Assembly (NCBI GenBank): GCA_963674965.2
Contig: CAXXFL010000006.1
Location: forward strand, 320,001 to 384,000
Length of the DNA stretch: 64,000 nt
Direction of reading: 5' to 3'
Origin: a bacterium
Lineage (GTDB): Bacteria > RBG-13-61-14 > DATKZS01
The position numbers and the translations under genes were made by a program. The notes under the pieces are model-generated. The model saw only the letters and a list, made by a program, of their open reading frames with translations. It ran no database searches and was not told the DNA's origin. Below are positions 2,664 through 27,926 of this stretch, piece by piece (position 1 is the first letter of the stretch; the number at the start of each line of letters is the position of its first letter).

Positions 2664-2681
2664 GATAAAACTCCATTTCAA

Positions 2682-6149: not shown

Positions 6150-6151
6150 GA

Positions 6152-7351
6152 TTAGCTTTCCTTACCCGCAATCATGGCGGCTGCGTCGGTGAATATTTTT
6201 TCAACTTCCTGGGTGGATTCGGGGTCAAAGTCCGTGGTGAAGAGGTCTGGCGCTTTTTCGCGTAACGGCTTTATGACATTTTCCTTCCACTCGGGGAGCA
6301 AGGCGTCGAGGTCGGCCTTTTCGACCGTGATAGTCCCCGAGGTTTCCAGACCATCCGGCGTAGTAGAGAAGATGATTTTTTCCAGCCAAAGCTGGTCAAG
6401 CCCCACATCGGTAGCTCGGCCGCGGAATTCATTGCGCCAGTACTCCCGGTTCGCGGTCATTTCAACATGGGCTGGCGTCGCACCCGATATTACCAGTCGA
6501 AGCGCCAATGGCCGATCATCGGTTTCGGCAAGTTCACTCTTCATTAGGGCTTCGGCACGCTCCACAACATCACGGGCATCGCCCGCGCCACTCGCATCAA
6601 CCTCGGCCACGGACCATCGCATTACATCCAGTTCCCGCCACTCGGCCGTGAGTTCAGTTTCGTCGCCGCTGACAATCAGGCAGCCCTTAGGACCGGTCTC
6701 CCGGATGTGTCGTCCCTGGATGCATCCTGGATAGGCGATAAGAGGATCGTGCGACAACTCTTCGCGGGTATGCACATGGCCTAGCGCCCAGTAGTCATAG
6801 CCTCTACGTACTAGGGATTCGACCGAGCAGGGAGCATAAGTGTTATGCGCGGAGTTGCCACTGGCGCTGGTGTGCAACAACCCGATGTTGATGAAGCCTG
6901 GCAATGGTGCGGGGTAACTCCGGACGAAGTCGGCATCGGTTTCGCGGCTGGCGAAGCTCCGTCCATGAACAGCCACCCTCAGATCGTTAAATTTTTTTGT
7001 GCTGGCCTGGCCTGACTCAAAGACATGAACATTATTGGGTAAAGACAAGCTACGGGTGATAATGCTGTCAGCGTCATGGTTTCCTTTTACGATGCAGACC
7101 GGGAGGCCGCCAAGACGCGATAGTTGCTTGTTCAGATAGAGGATGGTGTTGTAATCGCGCAAGGCACCGTCGTAGAGATCGCCTGCTATAAGCAGTAAAT
7201 CAACCTTTTCGGCATGGGCTAGATCAACCATATTCTCCAAGGCTCGTCGAGTTGCGCGTCGAACTTGGTCAACTGGTGCCCCTTCATATCTCTCTAGCCC
7301 CAAAAGGGGACTGTCGAGGTGGATATCGGCTGCATGAATGAACTTGATCAT
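6152..7351 (-). CDS. YhaO-like Mre11/SbcD metallophosphoesterase nuclease
   Basis: Motifs ADIHLD, AGDLYD, GNHD, LLHT, ALGHVH, YPGCIQGR; 2-nt gap to the ATPase gene. Confidence 0.92.
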   Translation of the reverse strand: MIKFIHAADIHLDSPLLGLERYEGAPVDQVRRATRRALENMVDLAHAEKVDLLLIAGDLYDGALRDYNTILYLNKQLSRLGGLPVCIVKGNHDADSIITRSLSLPNNVHVFESGQASTKKFNDLRVAVHGRSFASRETDADFVRSYPAPLPGFINIGLLHTSASGNSAHNTYAPCSVESLVRRGYDYWALGHVHTREELSHDPLIAYPGCIQGRHIRETGPKGCLIVSGDETELTAEWRELDVMRWSVAEVDASGAGDARDVVERAEALMKSELAETDDRPLALRLVISGATPAHVEMTANREYWRNEFRGRATDVGLDQLWLEKIIFSTTPDGLETSGTITVEKADLDALLPEWKENVIKPLREKAPDLFTTDFDPESTQEVEKIFTDAAAMIAGKES

Positions 7352-7389: not shown

Positions 7390-8358
7390 TTACTCACTAA
7401 CTGTCACTATATCACCAAAGCTCCTAATCCATGCTCTGATTTCCTCCGAGTCCGACACCTTCATGGTAAGCGTCACCGAGCCGTTCTTGTGAACTTTGCA
7501 CTTCTGCGACCGGTGCCACTGGCGGGAACATATGTAGTCGCAGAGCTCGGGCGGGAACTTGAGCTTGAAGGTCTTTTTCTCGCCGGTCGAGAAGATGCCA
7601 AAAGCCCCGTCGAGCAACTGCTCCGGATGGTACTTGGCCGGGTAGTCGAACTTCTCTTGAGTTACTTCAACCTCCCGGAGCCGCTCAATGTTGTAATAGA
7701 CGGGGCGCTCGTGATTCAACGTGCGGGCGACGAGATAGAGACCGCCCTTGTGGTACAGCAGCGTTAGAGGCTGGACAGTGTAGTCGCAAGGATCACACCC
7801 GCCGGGCTTGTAGTGGATATTGATGACATTCTGGTAGACGATGGCTTTGATCACGTCCGAGAGCATTTCGTCATGACCCGAGTAATCCTTGGGTGCCCAA
7901 GGCGCTGAGAAGAACTTTCTCGGCAGGTCCTTGATAAGGCCCCGGTGGGCACTGGTCAGCTTTTGCTCGACTTCCCTGAGCACGTCGTCAACCAGGTCCA
8001 CGAACAGGTTGTTGACCCCGAGCATCTTGAAAATCTCAAGCGACAGGTAGACCGAAATAAGCTGGTAGATGTTCGCCTGTGATTTGTCGTCGTACTTGGA
8101 CCGGCGCACTAGCCATTCCTCCCCGCCTTGTTTCTCCACCATGAACTGCGGGTCATCATGCTCCGTCACAAACTCCTCATTCAGGGCCTTGACGTAGCGC
8201 TTGACCGTCTGTTCGCTCACGCCCAGGCTATCGGCCACGGTCGCCAGTCTTTTGCCCAGCCCATGCCTTGGCATCTCGTCCACCAGCCGGGCCATGCGGA
8301 CCGCTGACGGATAGGTGGCCTTCCTGTATCCCTTGCCCTTACTTTTAATCTTCGCCAT
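7390..8358 (-). CDS. WYL-domain transcriptional regulator (wHTH-WYL-WCX)
   Basis: N-terminal HTH (VADSLGVSEQTVKRYVKAL), WYL core (VQPLTLLYHKGGLYLVA...YNIERL), WCX end (WIRSFGD). ATG 8358 follows a GAGGAGG RBS. Confidence 0.9.
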   Translation of the reverse strand: MAKIKSKGKGYRKATYPSAVRMARLVDEMPRHGLGKRLATVADSLGVSEQTVKRYVKALNEEFVTEHDDPQFMVEKQGGEEWLVRRSKYDDKSQANIYQLISVYLSLEIFKMLGVNNLFVDLVDDVLREVEQKLTSAHRGLIKDLPRKFFSAPWAPKDYSGHDEMLSDVIKAIVYQNVINIHYKPGGCDPCDYTVQPLTLLYHKGGLYLVARTLNHERPVYYNIERLREVEVTQEKFDYPAKYHPEQLLDGAFGIFSTGEKKTFKLKFPPELCDYICSRQWHRSQKCKVHKNGSVTLTMKVSDSEEIRAWIRSFGDIVTVSE

Positions 8359-8410
8359 CCTGCATCCTCCTCGTTCGCTTCCGCTATTAATACTATTATA
8401 CACACAGCCA

Positions 8411-8535: not shown

Positions 8536-9207
8536 TCAGTCTTTATGGTGCGTGACCTTGGTACCGTCAATGTATACTTCTCGACCACACGGGCAGATGT
8601 AGGAGTCTGCTATATTGGGAATGCCATAGGTCACGCCCAAAATTGGGCATTTGAAAACTTTATGCCCACCGAAGAGGTAGTCATAGCCAAGGTCATTGCA
8701 ATCCTTTAGGACAAAATCACTTCTAATTATCTTCTGTCCAGCATCCAAGATGCACTTCATTTTCTTATAGACTCCGGGGCGGGATCGGAAGGAACTGATG
8801 TTTCCTCTTTTCATGACGACCACAGCAAATGTGTCGGCAAAATCTTCTTCACTATCGAACCAAGCGTACCAGGAAATCCATTTGTTATCATCTAATATCA
8901 AATCGGGGTGATTTCTCCGATAATCCGCCAATTCGTTCCAAGGGTCCTCAAATCGCTTCTGATACTTAAAAAAGGAACGGTAGCCTCTTAAGGGCTTTTT
9001 CCTGCACCAGTAATCCTGGAAGGCATGTCCCATCTCGTGTGCTATCAGCTTTTCGGTGGTTCTGTTATTTATCATCGCCTTGAATAGACCTAATGGACCC
9101 TCAAGCTCATTCAGATTCCAAGCTACATCAACCCGTCCGGTTGCGCTGTTAAGGCTGGCAGCCGTTCTTGGCAGGGACAATGAGCAATGGACACCCGAGG
9201 AAATCAA
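8536..9207 (-). CDS. Putative zinc metallopeptidase with C-terminal Cys motif; possibly 5'-truncated
   Basis: HEMGH zincin motif plus EEDFADTF, and a CPxxG...CPCG tail. Only a weak TTG start; the frame is open upstream to ~9285 with no ATG. Confidence 0.6.
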   Translation of the reverse strand: MISSGVHCSLSLPRTAASLNSATGRVDVAWNLNELEGPLGLFKAMINNRTTEKLIAHEMGHAFQDYWCRKKPLRGYRSFFKYQKRFEDPWNELADYRRNHPDLILDDNKWISWYAWFDSEEDFADTFAVVVMKRGNISSFRSRPGVYKKMKCILDAGQKIIRSDFVLKDCNDLGYDYLFGGHKVFKCPILGVTYGIPNIADSYICPCGREVYIDGTKVTHHKD

Positions 9208-9288: not shown

Positions 9289-10257
9289 TTAACCAAGCCA
9301 GAATTTGGGATGATCAAAATCATGCTCTTTCAATAAGGTGCGGAGTTTATTTAAGTGGTTTATCCGGCCATTCTCCAATTCCTTTTTAGTGCCAATAATT
9401 AATAGTTCTGGTTGTTTCCTAAGACGAAGGCTATTTTGACATAGTTCTAGTATTTTTATCCCTTGAATGTTTTGGAATGATGTAAAGAATTTTTCTGGAA
9501 AAGCTTTTTGATGGATAAAATGCAAATAATTGGCGGCAACCAATTTGTAGGTTTCGATTATTTGGGATTCGTGCTGCAGAAATTCTCTGTAATGAATCAT
9601 CTGGGCAATTATCTCTGGTGGACTGTCCTTTTCTGCCTTGAGTCTAGAGTCCCTAACTAATTTTACTTCTGTAAGAACCAGATAAGGTAATCCATCAACC
9701 ATTTCAATACGGGCTAAATCGATCCTGTCTGCAACATATTTTCTTCCAGTCACTGATTTTATCCGTTCGTCTTCGGTTCTTCCACGCCGAAATGCAATTT
9801 CTAGATCGATCAAAAAAATATCTTTGTTTTTGAACATTGCACCAAGATATTTTTGAATACTTTCTTTCTCGCCAGAGATATGTCTTTGAGAAATGTACGC
9901 AAATGGATTCTCTAAGAGACCTGAAAATCTCCAACCACTTTGAGAAACCAAATCATTGCCATCATTCGAGAGCTTTAATTTAATATAGGGGTCCTTTCCT
10001 TCAAACTGATCGGCTTCACTGGCCAAATCTGTGTACTTGTAATGAATTCTAAACGGAGACTTTGAGTTGGGATGGTATCTAAGGACAGAGCAACCTTTCC
10101 AGTAGATATTGATGTAATTGTCCCTAATGCATATCTGATAATTATGAATCCCTTCAGCAAGTAATTTCTGCGCAATTAAGGTTTTAAAGAAAATATTGGC
10201 CCTCTCAAGAACTTTTGGATTCATACCCCTTTTAAAGGAAAATTCAGTGGCTTTCAT
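9289..10257 (-). CDS. Putative PD-(D/E)XK-type nuclease, AT-rich
   Basis: IDLEIAF...RIDLAR...LTEVKL...Q..Y motif series; GGAGG RBS. Confidence 0.6.
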   Translation of the reverse strand: MKATEFSFKRGMNPKVLERANIFFKTLIAQKLLAEGIHNYQICIRDNYINIYWKGCSVLRYHPNSKSPFRIHYKYTDLASEADQFEGKDPYIKLKLSNDGNDLVSQSGWRFSGLLENPFAYISQRHISGEKESIQKYLGAMFKNKDIFLIDLEIAFRRGRTEDERIKSVTGRKYVADRIDLARIEMVDGLPYLVLTEVKLVRDSRLKAEKDSPPEIIAQMIHYREFLQHESQIIETYKLVAANYLHFIHQKAFPEKFFTSFQNIQGIKILELCQNSLRLRKQPELLIIGTKKELENGRINHLNKLRTLLKEHDFDHPKFWLG

Positions 10258-10856
10258 GAGAATAAACCTCCGTTTCTAAAACATAACATACTATCCAAAT
10301 ACAGTGAGAAAAGTATCATATCAACAAGTGTCCATCATCGGCATTTGATACATTTTTGAAAAATTTCTCGAAATGATCTGCGCTCTCCGTATGGACAGGA
10401 ACAAGCTTGCGTGCATTGATGGCCTCTGCAAACACTTTGAGCTGGTCGAGGTTCGCATGGCCGCTGGTATGAATGTAGTGGAATTTGATGGCTTTATCAT
10501 CTTGGAAGCCCGCCATCATTTCGGCCCCCTGCATACTTTCCCAACGACTTGGGTCAAGGTAACCGCGCCATTGTGAATAGATGATGTTGACCGGATGTTC
10601 TTTTCTGTTTCTGTAGGCGTCAACAACTTTGGCCCCAGACGTTCTTATCACGCTCAGGTAATTCTCGGGCCTTTTGTATATCTGGTTTTTATTTATCGCC
10701 CTTCTCTCGGATCGCTCCCAAAAGTCCCCGAAATATTCAGGATTAGCCTCGACCAAAGCAGGCGGCGTACCAGAAGACAAGACCCGCCCCTCTGTGCCAA
10801 CGTAGATGAGACACTTCCCCTATGTTAAATTACTGTAGGGCGGGGGAGGTATTAGG

Positions 10857-11396
10857 ATGTATAGAGAGATGGATGAAGACAGGAAGAAGGCAGGGATTGT
10901 TGGGGAGACGGAGGGAGCCCGTAGGGCGACCGGAGTCTCCCCAACCGGGACGGCCGAGCCGGAGGACACTCCTGCCAAGCGGCCCGAGCGGGTGGGGGCG
11001 CCGATCATTCTTCCCGAGCCGGAGGTCCCGGAAAAGCCCGCCCGGCGGCGCTTCACCGCGGCTTACAAGCTCGCAATCCTCGGGAAGGCCGACGCCTGCT
11101 CGGGGCATGGCGAGGTCGGCGCCCTGCTGCGCCGGGAGGGCCTTTATTCGTCGCACCTGACGGCCTGGCGCAAGCAGCGGGACGAGGGGGCCTTGAAAGC
11201 GCTTTCGCCCGTAAAGCGGGGCCGCAAGCCCAAGGCCAAAAACCCGCTGGCCGATGAAGTGGCCCGCCTCGAGCGCGAGAACCGGAAGCTCCAAAAGCGG
11301 CTCGAACAGGCCGAGATGATAATCGACTTCCAAAAAAAAGTTGCCGATCTGCTGGGGATACCCCTGGCCAAGCCGCCCGGCGAAGAGAGCGAATGA
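10857..11396 (+). CDS. IS3-family transposase OrfA
   Basis: RRRFTAAYK HTH, LRREGLYSSHL, leucine-zipper-like C-terminus, A8 slippery run. Confidence 0.9.
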   Translation: MYREMDEDRKKAGIVGETEGARRATGVSPTGTAEPEDTPAKRPERVGAPIILPEPEVPEKPARRRFTAAYKLAILGKADACSGHGEVGALLRREGLYSSHLTAWRKQRDEGALKALSPVKRGRKPKAKNPLADEVARLERENRKLQKRLEQAEMIIDFQKKVADLLGIPLAKPPGEESE

Positions 11397-12409
11397 TGGA
11401 ATCGGCAAGCACGGCCGCTCCCCGGGTCGGCGCCAAGGCCGCCTGCGAGGCCCTGGGCCTGTCGCGAGCAACGTTTAATCGTCGCGCTAAAATTCCCTTC
11501 GGGCCTCCGCCGCCGAGGCGCGCGGCCAAGCCGGCAAGGTCGTTGAGCGAGGACGAGCGGCGCCGGGTGCTGGACGAACTCCACTCCGAGCGCTTTGCCG
11601 ACAAGGCCCCCCGCGAGGTCTGGGCAACGCTCCTGGACGAGGGGACATGGCTGTGCTCGGTCCGCACCATGTACCGCGTCCTCGACTCGGAAAAGGAAGT
11701 CCGGGAGCGGCGCAACCAACTCCGGCGTCCCCGATACAAAAAACCCGAGTTGCTGGCCGAGGCCCCCAACCAGGTCTGGTCCTGGGACGTCACCAAACTC
11801 AAGGGACCGGCCAAATGGACCTGCTACCAACTCTACGTGATCATGGACATCTTCAGCCGCTGCGTGGTGGGATGGATGATCGCCGGACGCGAAAGCGCGG
11901 AGCTGGCCCGCCGCCTGATCGGGGACAGCATCCGAAAACAGGGGATCGAGCCGGGACAACTCACCATCCACGCCGACCGGGGGAGTTCGATGAAATCAAA
12001 GCCGGTGGCCTTCTTGATGGCCGACCTGGGCGTGACCAAGAGCCACTCGCGGCCCCACGTGTCCGACGACAACCCCTACTCGGAAAGCCAGTTCAAGACC
12101 ATGAAGTACCGGCCCGAGTTCCCGAGCCGGTTCGGCTCCATCGAGGACGCCAGGGCCTTTTGCGTGAAGTTTTTCGATTGGTACAACCGCGAGCATCGGC
12201 ACACCGGGATCGGCCTGATGACGCCCGAGATGGTCCATTACGGAATGGCGAGCGAGATCGTGGCCGCCAGGCAAAAAACGCTCGACCACGCCTATGAAAA
12301 AAAACCGGAGCGCTTCGTGAAAAGACCGCCGACGGCGCCGGAGTTGCCCGGCAAAGCGTGGATCAACCCACCGGCGAAACCGGAGGAAATAAACAGTTTG
12401 CCACACTAA
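11393..12409 (+). CDS. IS3-family transposase OrfB (rve DDE)
   Basis: WSWDVT, DIFSR, HADRG, DNPYSESQFKTMK, YNREHRH. Confidence 0.93.
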   Translation: MMESASTAAPRVGAKAACEALGLSRATFNRRAKIPFGPPPPRRAAKPARSLSEDERRRVLDELHSERFADKAPREVWATLLDEGTWLCSVRTMYRVLDSEKEVRERRNQLRRPRYKKPELLAEAPNQVWSWDVTKLKGPAKWTCYQLYVIMDIFSRCVVGWMIAGRESAELARRLIGDSIRKQGIEPGQLTIHADRGSSMKSKPVAFLMADLGVTKSHSRPHVSDDNPYSESQFKTMKYRPEFPSRFGSIEDARAFCVKFFDWYNREHRHTGIGLMTPEMVHYGMASEIVAARQKTLDHAYEKKPERFVKRPPTAPELPGKAWINPPAKPEEINSLPH

Positions 12410-13268
12410 ATTCAGGAAAGGCGTGTCTCATTTTGCTTGACACATTCCGCGCATCCATTTCCATTCCATGCTCGGGACACCATCCGTCTTGAGCTTCATC
12501 TGCTCCAGAATCCAGGCGGTGTAGAGGTCGAGCACCATGGTCTTCTTGGCATCACGACAAGCCTTCCATGCGACAGTGAGCCTGTCCACATTCTGCCCCG
12601 AACAGACCAGGAAAGAAATATTCTTCTGGTCCTTGATGATGTTGTAAATTTCCCTGCCGATCTTTTCTTCGGTCTTTGCCGCGTTTCCGTCCCGACCGAT
12701 GTTGGTGCCTTCCATGATAAGGACATCTATGTCCTTGGGCGGGCGCTTCACAATCCGGTCAAAGAGCTTTCCCTTCTTGCCGTGGGAACGAAAGTCGCCG
12801 GAGTAGAAGACCCGCTTGCCTCCGGCCTCGACCAGAAAGGCAAAGGACTCCGGGGATGAGTGGTCCACAAGATAGGGAGTGATGGTAAAGCCGGCCACCT
12901 TGAATGGCTTCCGGTCGTCAATGTACTTGAACTCGCGGGACATAGGATCTCCCTTCCTGAAAATGCGAACCGCGTCGATCAGCCTCCTTCCGATCTCGCC
13001 TATGTAAATGGGCACGCCGGGAGCCAGTTCTTCCATCCGACCATAGTGGTCCTGGTGCGGGTGACTGATGATGAGGGCCTCCGGTTTGAAGCCCGTCAGG
13101 TCCACAGGCTTGGATTCGGGAGCAAGGGGCATCCCCAGTTCAAGCAGGATTGACCTTCCTGCATGAGAAAGTTCGATGCAGGTCCCGCCGATCTCATGAG
13201 AGCCTTTATGTATCTTGATCTTCATTGCAGCACTCTGCCCATAGTTTAGTCTTTCCGGAGTCGCGAAT

Positions 13269-15626
13269 TCAACCATGGGTCTCCATCCGCTCGTTGGCCC
13301 TCCTGAACTCATCAGGGTAGTTGGCCTTGAGGAATGCGCATCGGTAGGTGATTAGCGAGTAGGCCACAGCATGAGCCTTGTTGAAGGTAAATGAGATAAA
13401 AGCCCGAATTTCCTCAAGCAGGCCTTCCGCTTCATCTGTTGATAGCCCATTAGCCACCGCCCCGGTGATGAATCCATCCTCCAGATCAGACCTCTCGGGA
13501 AGTCGCTTAACGAGTTTCATTCTTAATGCATCGGCCTCCATGATGGACATGCCACCGATATCCATGCAGACTCTCAATACCTGCTCCTGGTAGACCCAAA
13601 CGCCATAGGTCTCGCTCAGGATTGGAGCAAGCTGCGGGACTGAGAAGTCAATGATGGCACTGTCATGCTTGGATGCGATCATTTGGTCCATAAAGCCTTG
13701 AGCCAACGGGCCGGGCCGATACTGCGCCATGACCGCGGCCAGGTCAGAGAAGCAATCCGGCTTCATCCTTGTCAACACCGACTTTGATCCCTCGCTTTCA
13801 AATTGAAACACGCCATCAGTGTCCCCCGCGCCAAGCAGTTCGTAGGCTCTACGGTCATTAAGCGGCAGCCTGCTGAGATTCAATTCAATGCCTTTCGTTC
13901 TGAGATCATCAAGGCAATAGCCAAACATGGTGACGGTCTTCAAACCGAGAATGTCAAACCTGACCAGTCCAAGACGCTCAACATCCTTCATGTCCACATG
14001 CACAATTGATTCCTGTCCACCACTAATATCTACTGGGGCGAGACTCTCCAATGACACATCCGAGACGACTACGCCAGCGGCATGCGTTGAACTATGTCGC
14101 AGTAGGCCTTCCAACTTCTCGGCAATTTTAAACAGATGATCGTATTTTGAATCTGTCTTTATCAAACGGGCCAATTCGGGAACTTCTTCCCGTGCTTCAC
14201 TCAGGTAGCTGTGAGGGGGGACCAGTCGTACTATCCTGTCGATTTCCTCTTGCCCTAATTTGAGGATTCTACCAATATCTCGTATAGCGGCCTTTGCTTT
14301 CATGGTTCCGAATGTGAGTATCTTGGCCACATGTTCTGGTCCTCCGTATTTCTCAATAATGTAGCTGATTACCTCATTCCTTCTTACGTCTCCGACATCA
14401 ACGTCGATGTCAGGAAAAACTGTCCGCTCCGGGTTAAGAAACCGCTCCGCGATGAGGCCGTGAGCCACGGGGTTTACATCGGTGATTCCCAGACAATAGT
14501 TCACTAGGCTGGCCGCCGCCGAGCCTCTGCCCGGGCCGACGGGTATGCTGTTGTCACGAGCCCAGTTCATATAGTCGGCAACTATCAGGAAATAGTCGGC
14601 CAAGTCGTGCTCAAGTATAGTGGCCATCTCATTTTCAAGCTGTCCCAGGTATTGAGGTTCACGAGAGAGGAATTCAGGATCGCTTATTTCAAAGTCCGTC
14701 CTTCTTTCCTTGAATCCTTCAGTAACTTGTTCCCTGAGCAGATCGGATGCACTTTTTCCCGAAGAAGTCCTGAAACTGGGAAGATGAATCTCATTAAGAT
14801 TGAAATCGAAGCAACATCTATCGGCTATCACGAGGCTGTTGTTGAGGGCATTGGGACAGTCAGCAAAAACCTCGGCCATCTCCTGGGCGGAACGAAAGTA
14901 GTAACCGGTCGCCAGGGGCGGGTCGCTCTTGGGAAAATCCGGCCAGGCTTGGCCCGACCTCATATAGAAAAGAACATTGTGGGCATTGGAATCTTCAGGG
15001 TCCAGATAGGCGCAGTAACCGGCGGCGACGACTGGTATGTCCAGTTCTTTGCCGAGCGCGATGAGACGCTTGTTGACCATCGTCTCTCCCGGCAATCCAC
15101 CATTGACCAGTTCGAGGTACAGGCGGTCTCCGAAAACATCCTTGTACCACTGGGCAGCCTGAGGAGCTTCTTCCTCCCTGCCGAATAAAAGTCCCGGCAG
15201 TTCACCATCCAAAAACCAGCCGGAAAGGGCTATCAGGCACTCGTTGTGTTTGGCAATCATCTCCTTTGTGACCAAGCCTGGGAACTGGCCGGAGCCTATG
15301 CTGGCCCTGGTCAAAATTTTGCACAAGTTTCTGTATCCGGCCTCGTTCTGACAGAGCAGTACCAGACTGTGACTTTCCGTCTCGGGATCACTGGCGTCAG
15401 TTGGGGCAACCTCCACCTCGCAGCCAATGATTGGCTTTATCCCGACACGTCTCGCCTCGATATAGAACTTCACAGCACCGGAGAGGGTCATGTAGTCCGT
15501 AATGGCCACGGCTGGCATGTTGAAATCTTTAGCCCGCTCCACCAGGTCCCGGACGCGAATCATGCTCCGAAGAAGGCTGAACTCGGTGCGAACATGAAGG
15601 TGTACGAATGAATTATTAGTGCGCAT
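13269..15626 (-). CDS. dnaE: DNA polymerase III alpha subunit-like protein, C-terminally truncated (~785 aa)
   Basis: PHP domain (FVHLH, KPIIGCE), GPGRGSAA, FLNPER.FPDIDVD, STHAAGVV, RFDILGL, GVFQFES, YRPGP, YQEQV, FNKAH..AY. Ends shortly after KANYPDEF. Confidence 0.92.
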   Translation of the reverse strand: MRTNNSFVHLHVRTEFSLLRSMIRVRDLVERAKDFNMPAVAITDYMTLSGAVKFYIEARRVGIKPIIGCEVEVAPTDASDPETESHSLVLLCQNEAGYRNLCKILTRASIGSGQFPGLVTKEMIAKHNECLIALSGWFLDGELPGLLFGREEEAPQAAQWYKDVFGDRLYLELVNGGLPGETMVNKRLIALGKELDIPVVAAGYCAYLDPEDSNAHNVLFYMRSGQAWPDFPKSDPPLATGYYFRSAQEMAEVFADCPNALNNSLVIADRCCFDFNLNEIHLPSFRTSSGKSASDLLREQVTEGFKERRTDFEISDPEFLSREPQYLGQLENEMATILEHDLADYFLIVADYMNWARDNSIPVGPGRGSAAASLVNYCLGITDVNPVAHGLIAERFLNPERTVFPDIDVDVGDVRRNEVISYIIEKYGGPEHVAKILTFGTMKAKAAIRDIGRILKLGQEEIDRIVRLVPPHSYLSEAREEVPELARLIKTDSKYDHLFKIAEKLEGLLRHSSTHAAGVVVSDVSLESLAPVDISGGQESIVHVDMKDVERLGLVRFDILGLKTVTMFGYCLDDLRTKGIELNLSRLPLNDRRAYELLGAGDTDGVFQFESEGSKSVLTRMKPDCFSDLAAVMAQYRPGPLAQGFMDQMIASKHDSAIIDFSVPQLAPILSETYGVWVYQEQVLRVCMDIGGMSIMEADALRMKLVKRLPERSDLEDGFITGAVANGLSTDEAEGLLEEIRAFISFTFNKAHAVAYSLITYRCAFLKANYPDEFRRANERMETHG

Positions 15627-16077
15627 GAATCCGCTCCCCAGGCTGGACAATCGCCTTGATTCCCCGGTCCATGAACTCCTCGAAATCTTCGAGGTTGCCG
15701 CTGAACTTTTCGCCGGACATCTTCTCCACCTGGGTGACTATGGACTCGATGATTTCCGGTACGTCCATCATTGTAGTGGGGTCGGGCATGAAGTAGGAAC
15801 CAGTGGTCCACCTGCTGACGCGATTGAACCAGCACAGCAATCTCCGAGGCAGAGCGTTAAGAATCCTCACCCAGAAAGGAGGAATCTGGCCGACATTCGC
15901 CTCGTCTTCAAACTTGACGACCGTTACCTTGACCCATCTGTTCATATTGAGAACTACGTCGCACTTTCCGCAATAGAGGAAATGGAAGGCTTTGGCCGGG
16001 TCGGACTCAAGCACGTATTGTTGAATCCCGACCATGACCTCTTCTTCGCACTTCGGACAGAATGCATACACCCCCAT
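15616..16077 (-). CDS. Small Zn-ribbon hypothetical protein
   Basis: CPKC...CGKC; AAGGAG RBS before ATG 16077; stop overlaps the dnaE start. Confidence 0.65.
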   Translation of the reverse strand: MGVYAFCPKCEEEVMVGIQQYVLESDPAKAFHFLYCGKCDVVLNMNRWVKVTVVKFEDEANVGQIPPFWVRILNALPRRLLCWFNRVSRWTTGSYFMPDPTTMMDVPEIIESIVTQVEKMSGEKFSGNLEDFEEFMDRGIKAIVQPGERIHAH

Positions 16078-16126
16078 TGACTTGCTCCTTTGCAATGGTT
16101 TTTCTTCTAATAATACAACTAGGGTA

Positions 16127-16141
16127 AATCAACGGTTGATT
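16127..16141. promoter_or_regulatory. Perfect palindromic operator candidate AATCAAC-G-GTTGATT upstream of the Zn-ribbon/dnaE operon
   Basis: Perfect 7-1-7 inverted repeat; 14/15 identical to 8411-8425; minus-strand TATTAT follows at nearly the same distance. Confidence 0.55.
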
Positions 16142-16209
16142 GGCTGTTTGGTCCTTTGATAGGGGCCAGGAAGCGTGAGTATAATGGCTTTGGGCCGAGG
16201 AATATGTGA

Positions 16210-16524
16210 GCATTCGGAAAGACAGCTTCCAACCTAAGCAAAAGAGTCGGCCAACACCTGATGCTTCTTGGTAGCGATGGTCTTATTCTGAAGCACACCG
16301 GCGGCGCGAAGAAGCTGAAGGCTCCAACAACCAGCTGCCAACTCCGGGCCGGCATCGAGCATCTATTCACGAGCCACACCAATACCCGCGCCCTGATTCT
16401 TGAGAATGTAGGGCTGTCATATGTGGTTCTTAACGGCGATGACCACGCCGCGAATCGGTTTTACTTGGAAGATATGGCCATCGGTTTGATGCGTCCCGCC
16501 TTGAATGTCGATATTGAGAGGTAG
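16210..16524 (+). pseudogene. Remnant of a GIY-YIG-like nuclease gene
   Basis: In frame upstream of the 87-aa ORF: (stop)AFGKTASNLSKRVGQHL; C-terminal R..LE...I....PALN; no proper N-terminus. Confidence 0.4.
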
Positions 16525-16586
16525 ATGGCCTAGGCTCCCACCTTGTCTGGAAGGCAACGTATTAAGGACGATTCATTGCCTTCGGG

Positions 16587-18038
16587 TCATGTTTTAATGG
16601 GAAGGGGAAGGCTCTTGAGCGTCATTGTTATCTCGTCCTCGCCTATGGTGATTCTTTCGATGATTGTCTCGATGATTTTTCGCTTCTCATCATCTGATAG
16701 GTTCGACCACCTTGATTGGAGTTCTTTTGATTCGCTTAGTATCTGCTTCTTGGTGAGCTGGCTGATTCTCAGGTAATCGAGTTCACCCTGTAGCTCTGGC
16801 AATTGCTTCTCGATGTTCTGAAACCTCTCCTCAAGCGGGTTGTAACGGCGTCCAAAACCTTTTCTTGGGATTTCTCCTTCATCGAGCAGCTTGAACAGCT
16901 TGCCCATTTCTCGCCAAGTTTTCTTCTGTTCTTCATGAAGCGTTTTTAGCAATGCTTCCTTGTCTTTCATCTGTTGTTCTGCTTCGCTCATCAATTGTGA
17001 TACCGGATTAGATGATTTCACGATTCCCTTTAGTTGGGTTCGGAATATCTCCTCTAGGTCTCCTTTCGGAATTTTTCTTCGACATTTTTGACAAATGTAT
17101 TTCGGTGAGTTTGATGGCATGTACATCTTGCCCCCGCATTGGCAGTAAACAATGCCCGTGAACAGCTTGACCTCCTTGCGAGTGGGCTTCTTTGTCCTTT
17201 TCTCGATTTCATCGAGAATCTGGTTGCACCTTCCCCAAAGCTCTTCGGAGACGACCGGTTCCACCTCGCTGAAGACCCACTCATCTTGGGACTTCAACTC
17301 CCATTGGTTTTCGTTCTTGAGGCTTCTCGTGTAATTCGCTCTCCGTACTCCTTTGGCGGTTGGGTCTCGGAGCAGCCTGGTGACTGTCGTATCGCTGAAC
17401 TTCGCTCCCTTCCTCGTGCGGTACCCTTGTTCGTTCAGGATGCGGGCAACGGTCTTCTTTCTTCTGTGTTCGAGGAACAGTTCATAGATGAGCTTTCTGA
17501 CCGGAGCCTCCTTATGATTCGGCGCCAGCTTGCCGTCCTTCCACTGATACCCGAAGCTGGCCTGGCCTCCTGTTGACTTGCCAAGTTTGGCGCGTTCAGG
17601 CACCGAAGCCTTCACCCGTTTGGAGGCCTCCTCTCGCTCCCACTGAGCCATGACCGGCACCAGGGTATGAAAGAGCTTCCCGGCGGGGGTTGAAGTGTCT
17701 ATGGACTCATCCAGGACTACCAGGTCGGCATCGTGGCTGGTAAAGTAATCCGAGAGATCCATCAGTTCCTTGGTGTTTCGGGCGAGACTGGCGAGACGAG
17801 TTGCGATGAGGCCGGTGATTCGGCCAGTCTTGATGTCCTTGAGCATTCGCTTGGCCTCTGGGTTATCCAGCACGCGCTCGCTTTCCATCGCCTCGAAGTG
17901 ATAGACCTCCCTGACGGTCCAGTCCTTGCCATTCGCATACTTACGAGCACGCGCCACCTGAGCCTCTGGGACGCCATCTTGGGCCTGGCCTCCAGAAGGT
18001 CCTTCAATCCAGATGCCGATATTTTTTACTCCCCCCAT
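16587..18038 (-). CDS. Large serine recombinase homologue with a degenerate catalytic motif
   Basis: Resolvase, recombinase, Zn-ribbon (CQCG..CQKC) and coiled-coil architecture; IDTSTPAGKL, AQWERE. N-terminus reads WIEGPSGGQ instead of (Y/W)xRxS. Confidence 0.85.
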   Translation of the reverse strand: MGGVKNIGIWIEGPSGGQAQDGVPEAQVARARKYANGKDWTVREVYHFEAMESERVLDNPEAKRMLKDIKTGRITGLIATRLASLARNTKELMDLSDYFTSHDADLVVLDESIDTSTPAGKLFHTLVPVMAQWEREEASKRVKASVPERAKLGKSTGGQASFGYQWKDGKLAPNHKEAPVRKLIYELFLEHRRKKTVARILNEQGYRTRKGAKFSDTTVTRLLRDPTAKGVRRANYTRSLKNENQWELKSQDEWVFSEVEPVVSEELWGRCNQILDEIEKRTKKPTRKEVKLFTGIVYCQCGGKMYMPSNSPKYICQKCRRKIPKGDLEEIFRTQLKGIVKSSNPVSQLMSEAEQQMKDKEALLKTLHEEQKKTWREMGKLFKLLDEGEIPRKGFGRRYNPLEERFQNIEKQLPELQGELDYLRISQLTKKQILSESKELQSRWSNLSDDEKRKIIETIIERITIGEDEITMTLKSLPLPIKT

Positions 18039-18169
18039 GGTCAATCCTTTTGAATCGTATGAATGATATGGTAGAGGGCCACATAACCTAAGGTACAAGG
18101 TTGTGTTGCCTTGTCAACCTCTTCCCGAATCAGCCATAATTATTAAAGCTAGCCAAACTTAATAATCAA

Positions 18170-18510: not shown

Positions 18511-18771
18511 ATGGTCCAATCTCAAAACCCTATGTATAGGGCCAGAGAAATCAGGGCCAACGTAAAAGGGACGACTTATCCAGAAATCAGCAAAGGACGT
18601 TTCCGCGAGATGTTAGACATCATGCCTTCATCAACAGTGATGAGGGAGTTTTCAAATCTTGTAATTGATATAATTACCCACGTAAGGCTTTTTAAAAATC
18701 AAATCGTCAAACTTCAACAGGCACGGGATATCCTTCTTCTACGTCTGATGTCAGGAGAAATCACATTATGA
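18511..18771 (+). pseudogene. hsdS: 3' remnant of a type I R-M specificity subunit
   Basis: GTTYPEISK..F and C-terminal KLQQARDILLLRLMSGEI, typical of HsdS ends; only 86 codons. Confidence 0.75.
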
Positions 18772-20108
18772 AAAGGACAAGACCCCCAATGGTATCTGAA
18801 AGTGACGACTTAGGTGGAAGTGGTGGCATAAAGGGAGATACTAAGACCACCAGATCAACGGCTGGCACATTAAAGTTTCTCGCGCCAGGGAAAACAGATT
18901 GGCTTGAACTAGATCCAGATATTAAAGAAGACGACGAGAACGTGCAAGCGATAAAAGACCAAGCGAGCGAAGCTGCAAACACCATAAAGGAGGTCCTTTT
19001 AACATCCCTTCAGATGCCTAATATTATCGTCTTGTCCGGAAGCGGCACATCAATAGGCAATGGAATCGGGGGACCATCAATGGAGGACCTATGGGATGTT
19101 GCCATGAGCGATCATTCTTCTGAAACAGAAGAAGGTCGACAGTTACGAGAATTAGCCCAAAGAGTCATTAAAAAGGTGGGTTACTCTATAGAAGAACATG
19201 GGGAAAATATAGAGGCCTTTCTTTCGCGCTGTGAAGCTTACCTTGAAATAAGGCATCAAAAATATGTAGCCGATTTTGTAATAGAGTGTAAAAAAGCGAT
19301 TTTGGGACGATGCTCAAACTTTCTTTACAAACAAGCCACTGATGAATGGGATGACGATAAGCTTGATGGGCACAAAACTTTTCTTCACCGCCTTTCCCGA
19401 AGGCGAGTCCGAGATCCAAGATTAAAGGTATTCACTACGAACTATGATCTTTGCTTCGAAAGAGCAGCCGCTCTACTCGGTCTGGTTGTAATTGATGGCT
19501 TTTCTATCGGTCAGCCCCGCCGTTTTCGTCCGGACTATTTTGAATATGATATTGTTCGTCGATCATCTCAAGGAGCAGAGATTGGCGATCCGCTTGAAGG
19601 AGTTTTTCATCTTCTCAAGCTTCATGGTTCTGTAAATTGGGAACTCCAGGATGATGGTAACATTCTTGAAAAGCTGCCTCCCGAGCCGGAAAAGGCATGT
19701 ATGATTTACCCCGTAAGCGGTAAATACCAACAGTCTTACATTCAACCCCACTTGGAATTGATGGCTCAATTCTTAGCCTCGCTTCGAAAACCAAATACTT
19801 GCTTAATTGTAGCTGGCTTTGGATTTAACGATGATCATCTTTCAGAGCCAATTATATCGGCTATTAAATCGAATTCTCAACTGAGGGTCATAGTTGCGGA
19901 TTATAAAGCCGAGGACCAAATTGAGGGAGGAATGGAGAAAGTAAGCAAATATTGGAGACTGCTCTCCGATTTAGCAAAAACTGGAGAAAGCATTTGGTTC
20001 TTCAATGTATCCTTTGGGGATTTTGCATACCTTTTGCCAAACCTAAAAGCATTAACACCAGCACAGCAACTAGAGAAGGCGGTAAAGGGTTTGAATACAC
20101 CAAGCTGA
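18768..20108 (+). CDS. SIR2-family NADase effector of a Sir2-HerA defence system
   Basis: LSGSGTS, FTTNYDL.FE, DGF, LKLHGSVNW, GFGFNDDH; adjacent to HerA. Confidence 0.9.
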   Translation: MKRTRPPMVSESDDLGGSGGIKGDTKTTRSTAGTLKFLAPGKTDWLELDPDIKEDDENVQAIKDQASEAANTIKEVLLTSLQMPNIIVLSGSGTSIGNGIGGPSMEDLWDVAMSDHSSETEEGRQLRELAQRVIKKVGYSIEEHGENIEAFLSRCEAYLEIRHQKYVADFVIECKKAILGRCSNFLYKQATDEWDDDKLDGHKTFLHRLSRRRVRDPRLKVFTTNYDLCFERAAALLGLVVIDGFSIGQPRRFRPDYFEYDIVRRSSQGAEIGDPLEGVFHLLKLHGSVNWELQDDGNILEKLPPEPEKACMIYPVSGKYQQSYIQPHLELMAQFLASLRKPNTCLIVAGFGFNDDHLSEPIISAIKSNSQLRVIVADYKAEDQIEGGMEKVSKYWRLLSDLAKTGESIWFFNVSFGDFAYLLPNLKALTPAQQLEKAVKGLNTPS

Positions 20109-20120
20109 GGACTTAACACT

Positions 20121-21851
20121 ATGAGTGCAAATGATTCAGACAAAGGCCTTCTTCTTCCAAAGCTGCGGATGGGAGTGGTGTCTTCTGTGAATGCAAATAT
20201 TGCTCGCATTAATCTTAGGGACGCCGGATTCCCCAGTGGTACTTATTATGAGGCTAGCCGTTACGGTCTCGGTGAGGTCGGAGAGTTTGTTCTCATTGAA
20301 GGGCAACAATTCTTAATTTTGGGCCGAGTTATTGAAATACGACTACCAGAGGGCGACCGGAGGTCCATTACACAGGATTTCCCGGGGTCTTCTGGACTTG
20401 ACGCTATCGGAAGTATTCAACTTCTTGGTACCGTATCAATGACAGATGAATTGTCGGTTACCGCAGGTGTCGTAGCATATCCAAGACTCGGAGACCGAGT
20501 GTATGCAGCACCTCACCAATTTGTTGCCCTGATCCCGATATTGATCAAACAGTCACCGGATAAAAAGGATCCAGACAAAATTCAGTTAGATTTGGGGGCT
20601 GTTGGACCTGCAAAAGAAAGCAGTGTTTTTATACCTCCTGAAAAGCTCTTTGGCCGCCACTGCGCGATACTTGGAGCAACCGGCGGTGGTAAAAGTTGGA
20701 CAGCGGCAAGAATTATAGAAGAGTGCCTGAGGTATAAGGCCAAGATTATTCTCATTGACCCTTCTGGTGAATATCGTGGAATGAAGGGGGAAAAAATACG
20801 GCATTGCCACCTTGGGAATCCTATTGAGAAAGCGGCTAAATCGGTATCTTGCTCTTTACCATCAACCTGTTTTCAAGAATCAGATTTTATTGCCTTGTTT
20901 GAGCCTGCTGGAAAGGTGCAAGGTCCAAAACTTCGAGCTGCAATTAGAAGTTTACGTCTCGCCAAATTAAAGCCAGAAATAGCCCCAAATGGATTTATCG
21001 AAAAGATAAATAAAACCAAAGCCCCAATCACTAGCGCAGAAAATGAGTCTGGCATTTCAGAAAAACTTGATGATCCTACCCAAGAATTTGAGGTTGGTAA
21101 TCTTGTGAAGCAGATAGAACAAGAGTGTGTCTGGCCTGACGCTTACGGAGGTGATGGAAGTAAATGGGGCAAAGAAGACGGAAATTTTTCACACTGTCTT
21201 TCATTGGTCACTAGAATCAATGGTGTTTTAACTTCTACTGCGTTTGCTTGTGTATTTAGTTGTAGTGATGATCCTATCCTAATCGACCAAGTCCAAGAGT
21301 TCCTTGAAGGTGATCAACGGTTATTGCGAATATGTCTCAGTGGGATTGCCTATGAATTCAAAGCACGTGAAGTCATTGCCAATGCTATAGGGAGACACTT
21401 GTTAAACGAGGCACGATCAGGAGCGTTTAGAAATCAGCCCGTAGTCGTTTTTGTTGATGAAGCACACAATTTTCTTGGCAGGTCAATTGGTGGAGAAGAC
21501 ACTATCGCTCGCTTAGATGCCTTTGAACTCTTGGCAAAAGAAGGACGTAAGTATGGCGTGAATATATGTGTTGCTACCCAGAGACCTAGAGATATAACGG
21601 AAGGCGTACTTAGCCAGTTGGGGACTCTCATCGTGCATAGGTTGACAAACGACCGTGACAGAGAGGTTGTTGAAAGGGCCTGTGGAGAAATAGACCGCAC
21701 TGCCTCAGCATTTCTTCCTAACCTTAAAGCCGGGGAAGCTGCGATTATCGGTGTTGACTTCCCAATACCGCTGACAATTCAGATGAAAAAACCGACTCAT
21801 CGGCCTCAATCTGAAGGTCCTAACTTTCAAAAAAATTGGGATGTGGAGTGA
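20121..21851 (+). CDS. herA: HerA-type ATPase (HAS barrel + DUF87) of the Sir2-HerA system
   Basis: HCAILGATGGGKS, IDPSGEY, FVDEAHNF, AKEGRKYG, ATQRP. Confidence 0.9.
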   Translation: MSANDSDKGLLLPKLRMGVVSSVNANIARINLRDAGFPSGTYYEASRYGLGEVGEFVLIEGQQFLILGRVIEIRLPEGDRRSITQDFPGSSGLDAIGSIQLLGTVSMTDELSVTAGVVAYPRLGDRVYAAPHQFVALIPILIKQSPDKKDPDKIQLDLGAVGPAKESSVFIPPEKLFGRHCAILGATGGGKSWTAARIIEECLRYKAKIILIDPSGEYRGMKGEKIRHCHLGNPIEKAAKSVSCSLPSTCFQESDFIALFEPAGKVQGPKLRAAIRSLRLAKLKPEIAPNGFIEKINKTKAPITSAENESGISEKLDDPTQEFEVGNLVKQIEQECVWPDAYGGDGSKWGKEDGNFSHCLSLVTRINGVLTSTAFACVFSCSDDPILIDQVQEFLEGDQRLLRICLSGIAYEFKAREVIANAIGRHLLNEARSGAFRNQPVVVFVDEAHNFLGRSIGGEDTIARLDAFELLAKEGRKYGVNICVATQRPRDITEGVLSQLGTLIVHRLTNDRDREVVERACGEIDRTASAFLPNLKAGEAAIIGVDFPIPLTIQMKKPTHRPQSEGPNFQKNWDVE

Positions 21852-21923: not shown

Positions 21924-21993
21924 CCCCTCTGTGCCAACGTAGATGAGACACTTCCCCTATGTTAAATTACTGTAGGGCGGGGGAGGTATTAGG

Positions 21994-22533
21994 ATGTATA
22001 GAGAGATGGATGAAGACAGGAAGAAGGCAGGGATTGTTGGGGAGACGGAGGGAGCCCGTAGGGCGACCGGAGTCTCCCCAACCGGGACGGCCGAGCCGGA
22101 GGACACTCCTGCCAAGCGGCCCGAGCGGGTGGGGGCGCCGATCATTCTTCCCGAGCCGGAGGTCCCGGAAAAGCCCGCCCGGCGGCGCTTCACCGCGGCT
22201 TACAAGCTCGCAATCCTCGGGAAGGCCGACGCCTGCTCGGGGCATGGCGAGGTCGGCGCCCTGCTGCGCCGGGAGGGCCTTTATTCGTCGCACCTGACGG
22301 CCTGGCGCAAGCAGCGGGACGAGGGGGCCTTGAAAGCGCTTTCGCCCGTAAAGCGGGGCCGCAAGCCCAAGGCCAAAAACCCGCTGGCCGATGAAGTGGC
22401 CCGCCTCGAGCGCGAGAACGGGAAGCTCCAAAAGCGGCTCGAACAGGCCGAGATGATAATCGACTTCCAAAAAAAAGTTGCCGATCTGCTGGGGATACCC
22501 CTGGCCAAGCCGCCCGGCGAAGAGAGCGAATGA
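21994..22533 (+). CDS. IS3-family transposase OrfA
   Basis: As copy 1. Confidence 0.9.
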   Translation: MYREMDEDRKKAGIVGETEGARRATGVSPTGTAEPEDTPAKRPERVGAPIILPEPEVPEKPARRRFTAAYKLAILGKADACSGHGEVGALLRREGLYSSHLTAWRKQRDEGALKALSPVKRGRKPKAKNPLADEVARLERENGKLQKRLEQAEMIIDFQKKVADLLGIPLAKPPGEESE

Positions 22534-23546: not shown

Positions 23547-24546
23547 ATTCAGGAAAGGCGTGTCTCATTTTGCTTGACACATTCCGAACCTGGGTTTTGT
23601 CGAAAACAATGCCTCCAACATGGAGAATGGATTATGAGTGAAACAGTATTTACAAAAGTCGACTACGATCTAGGCACGCTAGTCAAATACATTGCTCTCG
23701 GAGAAATCGGCTTACCTGATATTCAGCGACCTTTCATCTGGAAGAACGTCAAAGTACGCGATCTCTTCGACTCCATGTATAAAGGTTACCCGGTCGGATA
23801 TCTATTGTTCTGGCAGAACGGCCTTGCGGCCGACTCACGAACAATCGGCGCTGAATCAAAGCAGAAAGCACCCCGCCTCGTTATCGTAGACGGCCAGCAA
23901 CGCTTAACTTCACTCTATGCCGTTGTCAAGGGCATTCCTGTTGTGCGCGAAAATTACGAGAGTGAAAAGATCCAGATCGCCTTCAATCCCCTTGAAGGAA
24001 AATTTCAGGTTGCGGACGCCGCAATCAAACGAGATAAAACCTACATCCCTGACATATCAACTCTGTGGCACAGCGATAGCAAGATCACTAAGATTATCAG
24101 GGAATATATTGAGAACCTTAAGGCCGCAAGAGATATTTCTGAAAACGAAGAATCAATAATTGAGGATGCGATTTTAAAGTTACAGAGTCTTCTAAGTTTT
24201 CCATTCACTGCCCTTGAACTCACGCCGAACATCTCCGAAGAAAACGTAGGTGATGTATTTGTCCGCATAAACAGCAAAGGTACTCCGTTAAATCAGGCGG
24301 ATTTTATTTTGACCCTGATGTCCGTTTTCTGGGATGAGGGACGGACCGAACTTGAGAGATTTTGTAGAGAATCGCGTAAACCAGTTAAAGCCGGCACTTC
24401 TCCGTTCAACTATTTTATAGAGCCCAGTCCTTCCCAGCTTTTGCGCGCAAATGTAGGCGTCGGCTTCAAGCGTGCGCCCCTCTGTGCCAACGTAGATGAG
24501 ACACTTCCCCTATGTTAAATTACTGTAGGGCGGGGGAGGTATTAGG

Positions 24547-27660: not shown

Positions 27661-27926
27661 AGACAGTGAGTCTTAGTCGGGCATCGAATCAAAAAGCTAT
27701 CATTAGCTGTTAGAAATCGGAGATATATTTTCAATGACTAAAGAAAGACAACATCTTGATAAAAAGTCCTTTCTGAGTCTTACGGGGAGTCGTCCGGACT
27801 GGAGTGAACTTGCGAAGGACTGCGTGTGGTTTTCTAATGCGCAGGATGGAAAAATACAGATTGGGAAAGGGAATGGAGAAACCGAGCCACCGAAGGGCCG
27901 GTGATTTCTCCAGATCTAATGGAGCT

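Follow-up and report, generated by a model that had tools for sequence, protein, structure and literature searches.

A shortened DnaE polymerase, called DnaE' here, is encoded on the minus strand of a 64,000-nt stretch of bacterial DNA (contig CAXXFL010000006.1), the whole of which is referred to as the window. The interpretation considered the most likely, and held with about even confidence, is that DnaE' is a maintained, C-terminally truncated paralogue of the replicative polymerase DnaE1 that belongs to a cassette together with a Zn-ribbon protein, a metallo-beta-lactamase (MBL) nuclease and a PD-(D/E)xK-like protein, and that this cassette acts as a conflict or defence system.

Domain content and active-site residues of DnaE'

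Over residues 6-785, DnaE' was 46-47% identical to DnaE1 and presented the same order of PHP, palm, thumb and finger regions, retaining the PHP, palm, thumb and first finger subdomains (index/middle) of a DnaE1-type Pol III alpha. The only Pfam domains recognized were PHP, DNA_pol3_alpha and DNA_pol3_finger (PF02811, PF07733 and PF17657; 1e-42 to 1e-82); the HHH_6 (PF14579) and OB (PF01336) domains, which are carried by the full-length hits, were not found in DnaE' by Pfam. The stop comes 11 residues after the YPDEF motif, and the alignment to E. coli alpha runs from 5 to 785 of 1160, with eight more residues of DnaE' past the aligned part; its end is at the equivalent of position ~793. DnaE' therefore differs from DnaE1 by ending at ~793/1160, without the (HhH)2, the region of the clamp motif, the OB fold and the C-terminal domain (CTD), and by being an additional gene of patchy distribution. 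Among the NCBIfam models, DnaE' scored above the cut-off of the superfamily TIGR00594 (802.7 bits versus 434) and under that of the equivalog NF004226 (837.2 bits versus 1002).

PMC3919608 describes PHP, Pol3 and (HhH)2 as a conserved core, corresponding to E. coli residues 6-889 and followed by the OB and CTD, and it also reports DnaE variants without the CTD, or without both the OB fold and the CTD. Since DnaE' has lost the rest of the fingers with the (HhH)2, the clamp-binding region, the OB fold and the tau-binding tail, it is predicted to be unable to join the replisome. In this respect the original prediction, made from the letters of the window, of a non-replisomal DnaE without the clamp, OB and tau region was well founded, the helix-hairpin-helix (HhH) part being absent as well.

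The motifs quoted in that prediction (HLHVR, ITDY, AAGYCAY, PDIDVD, FDILG, and YPDEF followed by 11 residues) were all located in the protein, and the polymerase core is intact, as had been claimed, with the triad of catalytic aspartates (DDD) kept. D406, D408 and D558 of DnaE' aligned with the PDFDVD and FDFLGL motifs of E. coli alpha, whose catalytic residues we take to be D401, D403 and D555. Likewise, GPGRGSA and NKAH (NKxH in DnaE1) are kept in the DnaE' clade. The claimed loss of the PHP ligands was also observed, 5-6 of the 9 metal ligands being gone and 3-4 left. The nine-residue motif of the PHP metal site is given as HHDHEH[C/H]DH in PMC12926913; this signature reads HHRYESWYA in the DnaE' of the window, HHQYEGWFH in its relative P0002, and HHDHEHCDH in the DnaE1 of the host. 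Thus, DnaE' combines intact polymerase residues with a degenerate PHP metal site.

These changes were placed in a wider frame by reading, in three DnaE' sequences, the 220 columns that are at least 95% conserved across 40 DnaE1 proteins. In all three sequences 149/220 columns were unchanged and 37/220 were altered; of the altered columns, 24 belong to the PHP domain and the other 13 to the polymerase core, with the LRxAMGKK finger motif accounting for four of these 13.

Family, origin and selection

The search among 5.8 billion protein clusters returned two close relatives of DnaE', both 788 aa long and 63-64% identical to it, and beyond them the next matches were full-length DnaE1 proteins with no more than 47% identity. 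Both relatives stop at the same residue as DnaE' (…YPDEFRQAKERMEALG) and have its PHP substitutions. Homologues of ~780-800 aa with the same end, of the kind that the original prediction had proposed to look for, are thus represented by these two proteins, and the same neighbours were found in a second genome, from the same taxonomic order (G003), in which a 12.8-kb contig carries the genes for the Zn-ribbon protein, DnaE' and an MBL of 444 aa in the same order and with the same spacing. The flanks of this trio differ from those in the window, since in G003 an ADP-ribosylglycohydrolase gene lies upstream, the recombinase is missing, and the gene that follows downstream (411 aa) is unrelated. 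Homologues of the Zn-ribbon protein, all of 153 aa, had 78% and 56% identity to it, and the 78% copy is the one directly upstream of DnaE' in G003. DnaE' is thus kept with the Zn-ribbon and MBL genes, as had been supposed, and the trio is co-inherited. The serine recombinase next to the cassette in the window does not share this conservation and is absent in G003. Across the 13 genomes of the phylum to which the window belongs, DnaE' was found in 2/13 and a separate DnaE1 in 13/13; in the genome of the window itself, a full DnaE1 is encoded on contig C7, and contig C3 carries a DnaE2-like gene.

The comparison of the two DnaE' genes (784 codons, 64% aa identity) gave identities of 0.71, 0.82 and 0.43 at codon positions 1, 2 and 3, and that of the two Zn-ribbon genes (153 codons, 78% aa identity) gave 0.84, 0.92 and 0.57. 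The third positions were the least conserved in DnaE', the synonymous sites of which are saturated (proportion of synonymous differences, pS, 0.83; nonsynonymous divergence, dN, 0.27), and for the MBL gene the synonymous divergence (dS) was 0.74-1.7 with a dN/dS of 0.09-0.11. In a neutral simulation run to the observed divergence, the DnaE' frame stayed open in 0/2000 trials. Taken as a whole, these patterns point to purifying selection and selective maintenance of DnaE'. The truncation is not unique, the 788-aa homologues sharing its end, and selection appeared purifying rather than relaxed; on the same grounds, the decaying capture that had been offered as an alternative was rejected for the family.

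The relation to the host polymerase, also raised by the original prediction, was addressed by trees obtained with an IQ-TREE quick search (LG+G4) and rooted on DnaE2. The DnaE' clade (n=3, SH-aLRT 100) had as its sister group the DnaE1 of the family to which the window belongs (98) and was nested inside the DnaE1 of the phylum, with a stem some three times longer than the neighbouring branches (0.66-0.69 versus 0.1-0.26). Because of this position and the long stem, DnaE' is a fast-evolving offshoot of the lineage's own replicative DnaE1 and not a phage gene.

About 100 nt before the DnaE' stop, the nucleotide identity between the two cassettes rises from ~0.6 to ~0.85; therefore, the two cassettes appear to be mosaics with exchanged parts. 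A metagenomic locus (L085, 1526-2485) had ~85% DNA identity to the window from 13370 to 12450, that is, over the 3'-terminal ~100 nt of DnaE' and the initial two thirds of the MBL gene, and only ~60-63% over the body of DnaE', with a recombination boundary inside the DnaE' 3' end.

Further relatives of DnaE' were scarce. Among the GTDB representative contigs, the best 80 loci were only 36-45% identical, with no close relative among the matches listed, G003 not being one of them; every match in the phage and plasmid collections was below 60% identity; and IMG/VR gave no close relative when queried with the C-terminus of DnaE', with the MBL or with the Zn-ribbon protein. The metagenome scan gave 13 loci, comprising one cassette of the G003 type (L085), one relic (L086) and, for the rest, ordinary or phage DnaE genes. 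In L086, the decayed or recombined end of a cassette, nothing is left of DnaE' except its final ~50 codons (749-910), 73% identical to those of the window. The gene that follows this relic (1028-2188, 386 aa) matches the PADLOC candidate PDC-S11.

Organization of the cassette

The genes of the cassette are all on the minus strand, in a row of closely spaced genes that encode, along this strand, a serine recombinase, the Zn-ribbon protein, DnaE', the MBL, a 322-aa protein, a 223-aa protein and a WYL regulator. The features of this region, with their basis, were as follows.

16587..18098, minus strand: large serine recombinase, 503 aa; upstream neighbour, outside the conserved module (Pfam and NCBIfam)
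15619..16077, minus strand: gene of the Zn-ribbon protein, 153 aa, with N-terminal CxxC...CxxC; first of the conserved trio (open reading frame, sequence, homologues)
13269..15626, minus strand: DnaE' gene, 785 aa plus stop, the stop at 13271..13269 (Pfam, NCBIfam, homologues, PDB alignment, motif table, trees, selection)
12450..13312, minus strand: 5' part of the beta-CASP MBL nuclease gene, native codons to 12450 (Pfam Lactamase_B_2; 88% aa identity to the intact 444-aa homologue)
10788..12449, plus strand: insertion sequence (IS) of the IS3 family, 1662 bp (four copies in the window, 3-bp duplications, Pfam)
10857-11396, plus strand: orfA of the IS3-family element, HTH_Tnp_1 (Pfam)
11393-12409, plus strand: orfB of the IS3-family element, rve (Pfam)
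10316..10787, minus strand: 3' part of the split MBL gene, with HTSGH, VHTE and the RMMBL domain (translation, Pfam, MBL of G003)
9289..10257, minus strand: gene of the 322-aa PD-(D/E)xK-like protein (homologous to MBL partners elsewhere)
8536..9207, minus strand: open reading frame of 223 aa (open reading frame listing)
7390..8403, minus strand: WYL/WCX/HTH regulator at the end of the same-strand row (Pfam)

The original prediction had treated the span 13269-16077 as one DnaE. DnaE' is indeed present there, but the upper 459 nt are a separate gene, that of the 153-aa Zn-ribbon protein (16077..15619). The open reading frame of DnaE' spans 13269..15650 on the minus strand, and the best start is the ATG at 15626, which gives 785 aa, as in the database entry P0001. 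This ATG overlaps the stop of the Zn-ribbon gene (ATGCGCACTAA), with GGGGAG upstream. The Zn-ribbon protein itself had no Pfam, NCBIfam or PADLOC family above cut-off, and a search of the Atlas for its homologue gave only scores below 0.9. No imuA/imuB-like domain was found among the neighbours, nor was a separate C-terminal DnaE piece found anywhere in the genome, both in agreement with what had been noted earlier. The WYL/WCX/HTH protein is a possible regulator of the cassette.

A gap of 509 nt separates the serine recombinase from the Zn-ribbon gene. The 491-nt spacer at 16096-16586 has an 87-aa plus-strand open reading frame (16261-16524) with no family match, and no other site in this region is as promoter-like as one that it contains (16156-16185, plus strand, 11/12). 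The promoter and terminator scan stayed at chance level, and the Rfam search gave no match inside the cassette.

The MBL nuclease gene and its insertion element

In the window the MBL gene is split by the IS3-family element, with a target duplication of CGC at 10785-10787 and 12450-12452. The reading of a 294-aa MBL gene is too short; its last 22 nt come from the IS, and the real 3' part is found at 10786..10316. In its longest frame the intact homologue has 444 aa, and the 3' fragment is 69-70% identical to residues 288-434 of the G003 MBL. The intact MBL of G003 presents the HxHxDH, SGH and VHTE motifs and the RMMBL domain, which in the window are divided between the two fragments. Weak matches to RNase J and Cas14 are the basis for assigning the beta-CASP insert; the best PDB matches were to RNase J, at 1e-11 at best, and the scores fell far under the NCBIfam cut-offs. 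Since the insertion splits the MBL gene, the cassette probably does not work at present in the genome of the window.

The coupling of DnaE' to a nuclease, as originally proposed, holds insofar as the trio with the MBL is conserved, but the MBL gene is disrupted here. The proposed overlap of the DnaE' stop with the MBL start also requires qualification. The ATG at 13276 is present, but the overlap is doubtful, because this ATG is not conserved in the second genome and the N-terminus of the wider MBL family (MKI.IHKG) corresponds here to the ATG at 13225, 43 nt past the DnaE' stop, the longest frame running from 13312. The ATG at 13225 is, by this correspondence, the likely start of the MBL.

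Four copies of the IS3-family element are present in the window (10788-12449, 21925-23586, 24478-26139 and 42317-43978), 98.3-100% identical and bordered by 3-bp target duplications of CGC, AAC, CGC and GGC, respectively; they look like recent independent insertions in the island. A GmrSD_N open reading frame (23574-24518) lies between two of these copies, overlaps the ends of both, and may be truncated.

MBL homologues and their partners in other genomes

The family of this MBL is large (4384 hits, typically 412-415 aa) but patchily distributed, being found at E<=1e-60 in 5/401 sampled genomes of another phylum and in 11 plasmid records. The 322-aa protein of the window is homologous to the ~320-aa neighbours of the MBL in four places, three of them plasmids and the fourth the genome G397.

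Rhizobium plasmid: ~320-aa partner at 2.8e-8, beside an Eco57I-type methylase and a GIY-YIG nuclease
Ochrobactrum plasmid: ~320-aa partner at 2.8e-7
Cereibacter plasmid: ~320-aa partner at 7e-4, beside a Tn3-family transposase
Genome G397: ~320-aa partner beside the MBL, near TraG and an IS

The 322-aa protein had no Pfam, PADLOC or PDB match. It carries the motif set IDxE ... RxD ... ExK ... Q..Y, and D151/E153, R178/D180, E197/K199 and Q219/Y223 are invariant in the four aligned members of its family, a pattern that is PD-(D/E)xK-like. Other MBL loci adjoin type I restriction-modification (RM), AbiJ or Hypoth_Ymh genes, or an integrase. Outside the phylum of the window, a DnaE-like gene beside the MBL was found in 0/5 genome loci and 0/3 plasmid loci examined, and the Zn-ribbon protein had no likeness to the small proteins upstream of the plasmid MBLs. 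Within the phylum, MBLs of strong score were found in 4/13 genomes, the two with DnaE' and also G001 and G009. In G001 (L141, G001:C48, 3353-8473) the locus comprises an AAA ATPase of 489 aa, a 171-aa protein, an MBL of 413 aa, a 258-aa protein and a divergent WYL regulator. The downstream genes in G003, G009, G001 and L086 were unrelated to the 322-aa gene by BLASTP and HMM, with a likeness at the level of motifs only.

By these comparisons, the MBL and the PD-(D/E)xK-like protein are a conserved backbone, an accessory pair of plasmids and of one conjugative element. Because the pair is found without DnaE elsewhere, DnaE' and the Zn-ribbon protein look like a lineage-specific add-on, in which the polymerase would be an accessory and not the centre of the system.

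Other cut-down DnaE proteins

A second kind of shortened DnaE was found in G009, where a 436-aa DnaE remnant lies two genes downstream of the MBL homologue. The locus (L140, G009:C314, 8156-12117) comprises the MBL homologue, a 235-aa protein with D...ELK, a 152-aa protein and the remnant. This 436-aa form has neither the PHP nor the thumb, reads ADV for DDD and GPGCNSA for GPGRGSA, and ends (…LKANFPGEFARAFPATA) at the same point as DnaE'. In the search with the G009 form among 1.84 billion representatives, eleven of the best 150 matches, including P0002, end 5-14 residues after YPxEF, and by length they form three groups (779-795 aa, 606 aa and 435-560 aa). Among the eleven, intact and degenerate PHP sites are combined in every way with intact and dead triads (DDD, DFQ, DVD, RDN); the dead triads are DFQ in P0247, DVD in P0298 and P0327, and RDN in P0246, and the G009 mini form itself has ADV. 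Some cut-down members, such as P0318, look canonical and may be gene fragments. Compared with the 401 sampled genomes, the P0246 mini form matched only full-length DnaE1.

In a tree of 74 rows, made by a quick search and with long branches, the cut-down DnaEs fell in at least four places among the full-length DnaE1; in the tree with the G009 mini form alone, support was 51 and the branch length 2.0. It is conceivable, although doubtful, that DnaE N-terminal pieces of ~785 aa or less were independently recruited several times (four or more origins by the tree) as end-recognition or decoy subunits of nuclease immune cassettes, some of them polymerizing, as DnaE' would, and others dead. Such proteins might then form an unnamed fifth C-family architecture outside replication.

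The surrounding island

The window is a defence island, and the view that DnaE' is island-borne was confirmed by the presence of SIR2-HerA, DISARM-like, GmrSD and WYL genes and of a tmRNA gene. Directly beyond the serine recombinase, SIR2 (446 aa) and HerA (576 aa) are encoded at 18768-21851 (PADLOC 3e-87 and 2e-154). They are followed at 27804-41252 by a gene row that, by its Pfam domains, encodes an SNF2 helicase, an MmeI/Eco57I-type methylase, a helicase, an MZB (DUF1998-type) protein and a PLD nuclease, and that is named DISARM-like here from what we take to be the make-up of DISARM. On the other side, the minus strand of 1-7351 encodes a PLD-like protein (a ZacB-like PADLOC hit), a 445-aa protein with no assignment, a 1155-aa AAA_27/SMC-like ATPase and a 399-aa metallophosphoesterase, which together look like an SbcCD-like or Lamassu-like module. 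The tmRNA gene lies at 62050-62408 (minus strand, 164 bits) and a second large serine recombinase at 44018-45568 (minus strand); possibly, everything to the left of the tmRNA gene is a series of islands that integrated at ssrA.

Possible function of the cassette

In the mechanism proposed here, the four proteins of this tight cassette, namely the Zn-ribbon protein, DnaE', the beta-CASP MBL nuclease and the PD-(D/E)xK-like protein, would act in succession. DnaE', aided by the Zn-ribbon protein, would bind primer-template ends of foreign or damaged DNA and would then carry out short, clamp-independent, unproofread synthesis, or might just hold the end; afterwards, the MBL and PD-(D/E)xK-like nucleases would process the nucleic acid. 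We infer that the cassette serves in conflict with foreign DNA because of its island context, its patchiness, its mosaicism and the RM and abortive infection (Abi) neighbours of the MBL elsewhere.

Several observations weigh against this interpretation. No tool pointed to the defence, repair or mutagenesis role that the original prediction had suggested, and PADLOC-DB 2.0, a library that dates from 2023, gave 0 matches for the Zn-ribbon, DnaE', MBL and 322-aa proteins and for their G003 copies. The link to DnaE is narrow, being found in 3/12 MBL loci examined, all in one small phylum, and the 411-aa gene downstream of the MBL in G003 is not detectably related to the 322-aa gene of the window. 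Moreover, the cassette of the window is broken by an IS, and that of G009 is set among housekeeping genes. Finally, full polymerase activity is not certain, because the finger motif LRxAMGKK is altered to LRMKLVKR in DnaE'.

In a possible but doubtful alternative, DnaE' resembles a replisome component, yet is unable to enter the replisome, and is a non-catalytic sensor or decoy that is bound by a phage factor targeting Pol III alpha, or that detects primer ends, and that switches on the MBL and PD-(D/E)xK proteins, synthesis being dispensable. The derivation of DnaE' from the lineage's own DnaE1 speaks for such a role, as do the dead catalytic triads in related proteins with the same C-terminal cut and the position of the G009 form next to an MBL homologue. 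However, among the dead-triad proteins the gene context is known for the G009 form only, and DnaE', with only 46% identity to the host DnaE1, would be a poor mimic of it. Since the clade of the window keeps the three aspartates, GPGRGSA and NKAH, and only 13 clade-wide changes fell in the core among the 220 columns, catalysis appears to be under selection. DnaE' could also be an error-prone or damage-tolerance polymerase like DnaE2/ImuC with other partners, filling without proofreading a gap opened by the nucleases, which is considered quite unlikely. WYL regulators, which respond to DNA damage in some systems, flank two MBL loci (the window and G001). The degenerate PHP site is also a feature of DnaE2, according to PMC12926913. 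Against this stand the absence of imuA/imuB or Y-family genes nearby, the placement of DnaE' outside the DnaE2 clade and the DnaE2-like gene that the genome already has on contig C3; furthermore, access to stalled forks would be unexplained for a protein lacking the clamp-binding region.

The company of the cassette raises the unlikely alternative of a mobile-element replication or repair module, in which the Zn-ribbon protein and DnaE' would copy an excised element moved by the serine recombinase and the MBL would process its ends. The large serine recombinase is directly upstream on the same strand, MBL homologues occur on plasmids, on an element bearing TraG, in a Tn3 cargo region and next to an integrase, and the mosaic similarity of the two cassettes indicates exchange. 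The recombinase, however, is not kept with the trio, the flanks varying around a fixed cassette in 2/2 intact loci; the cassette has no primase, helicase, initiator or clamp gene; and no close relative was found among phages, plasmids or IMG/VR, where the best DnaE matches were below 60% and the listed ones were ordinary DnaE genes running past the truncation point. It is very improbable that DnaE' is what remains of a captured, decaying dnaE, or that it is the N-terminal half of a split gene. The IS insertion in this cassette, the few codons of DnaE' left in L086 and the canonical appearance of other '790-aa' proteins, such as P0318, which may be fragments, would fit such an origin, but three diverged copies that end at the same point each keep the frame open across 785-788 codons, the codon positions bear the signature of purifying selection, and none of the 2000 neutral simulations stayed open. 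In addition, Pfam detected no intein domain, the genome has no C-terminal DnaE piece, and the host has its full DnaE1. The pseudogene and split-gene readings are thus largely excluded for the family.

Relation to known polymerases and nucleases

Like the DnaE2 of the ImuA-ImuB-DnaE2 system, DnaE' is an accessory second DnaE with a degenerate PHP site in a variable genome region, but DnaE2 keeps the HhH and OB parts in ~1000-1100 aa, whereas DnaE' falls outside the DnaE2 clade and has no imuA/imuB neighbours. The N-terminal product of the cyanobacterial split-intein DnaE (NF007079) is similar in extent to DnaE', its natural split lying ~30 residues upstream of the DnaE' end; however, DnaE' scored 499 bits against the NF007079 cut-off of 1525 and has neither an intein domain nor a C-terminal half. 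Similarly, the partner MBL shares HxHxDH, SGH, VHTE and RMMBL with the beta-CASP MBLs of the RNase J/CPSF73 type, but it is only ~412-444 aa long and forms a separate large family. By analogy only, DnaE' resembles the polymerase-containing defence systems (DRT, retrons and AbiK), in which a polymerase also occurs in a small accessory cassette with effectors; these are reverse transcriptases, while DnaE' is a C-family polymerase.

Full-text searches of the literature found no truncated DnaE with an MBL nuclease and no C-family polymerase in a defence system, although the supplements of the surveys PMC12926913 and PMC3919608 could list such forms; PADLOC likewise yielded no defence system with a C-family polymerase. 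PMC12926913 names four C-family groups, and its phylogenetic analysis was made after truncated sequences had been removed. In both surveys PHP, Pol3 and (HhH)2 are taken as invariant and truncated sequences were left out.

The roles usually assigned to C-family polymerases are those in the replisome and in the DnaE2 mutasome. A conserved form that stops before the (HhH)2 and travels with nucleases would extend the uses of these polymerases, and DnaE' itself is a naturally minimal Pol III alpha core that biochemistry could use. The finding also points to an uncharted MBL and PD-(D/E)xK cassette on plasmids and in defence islands.

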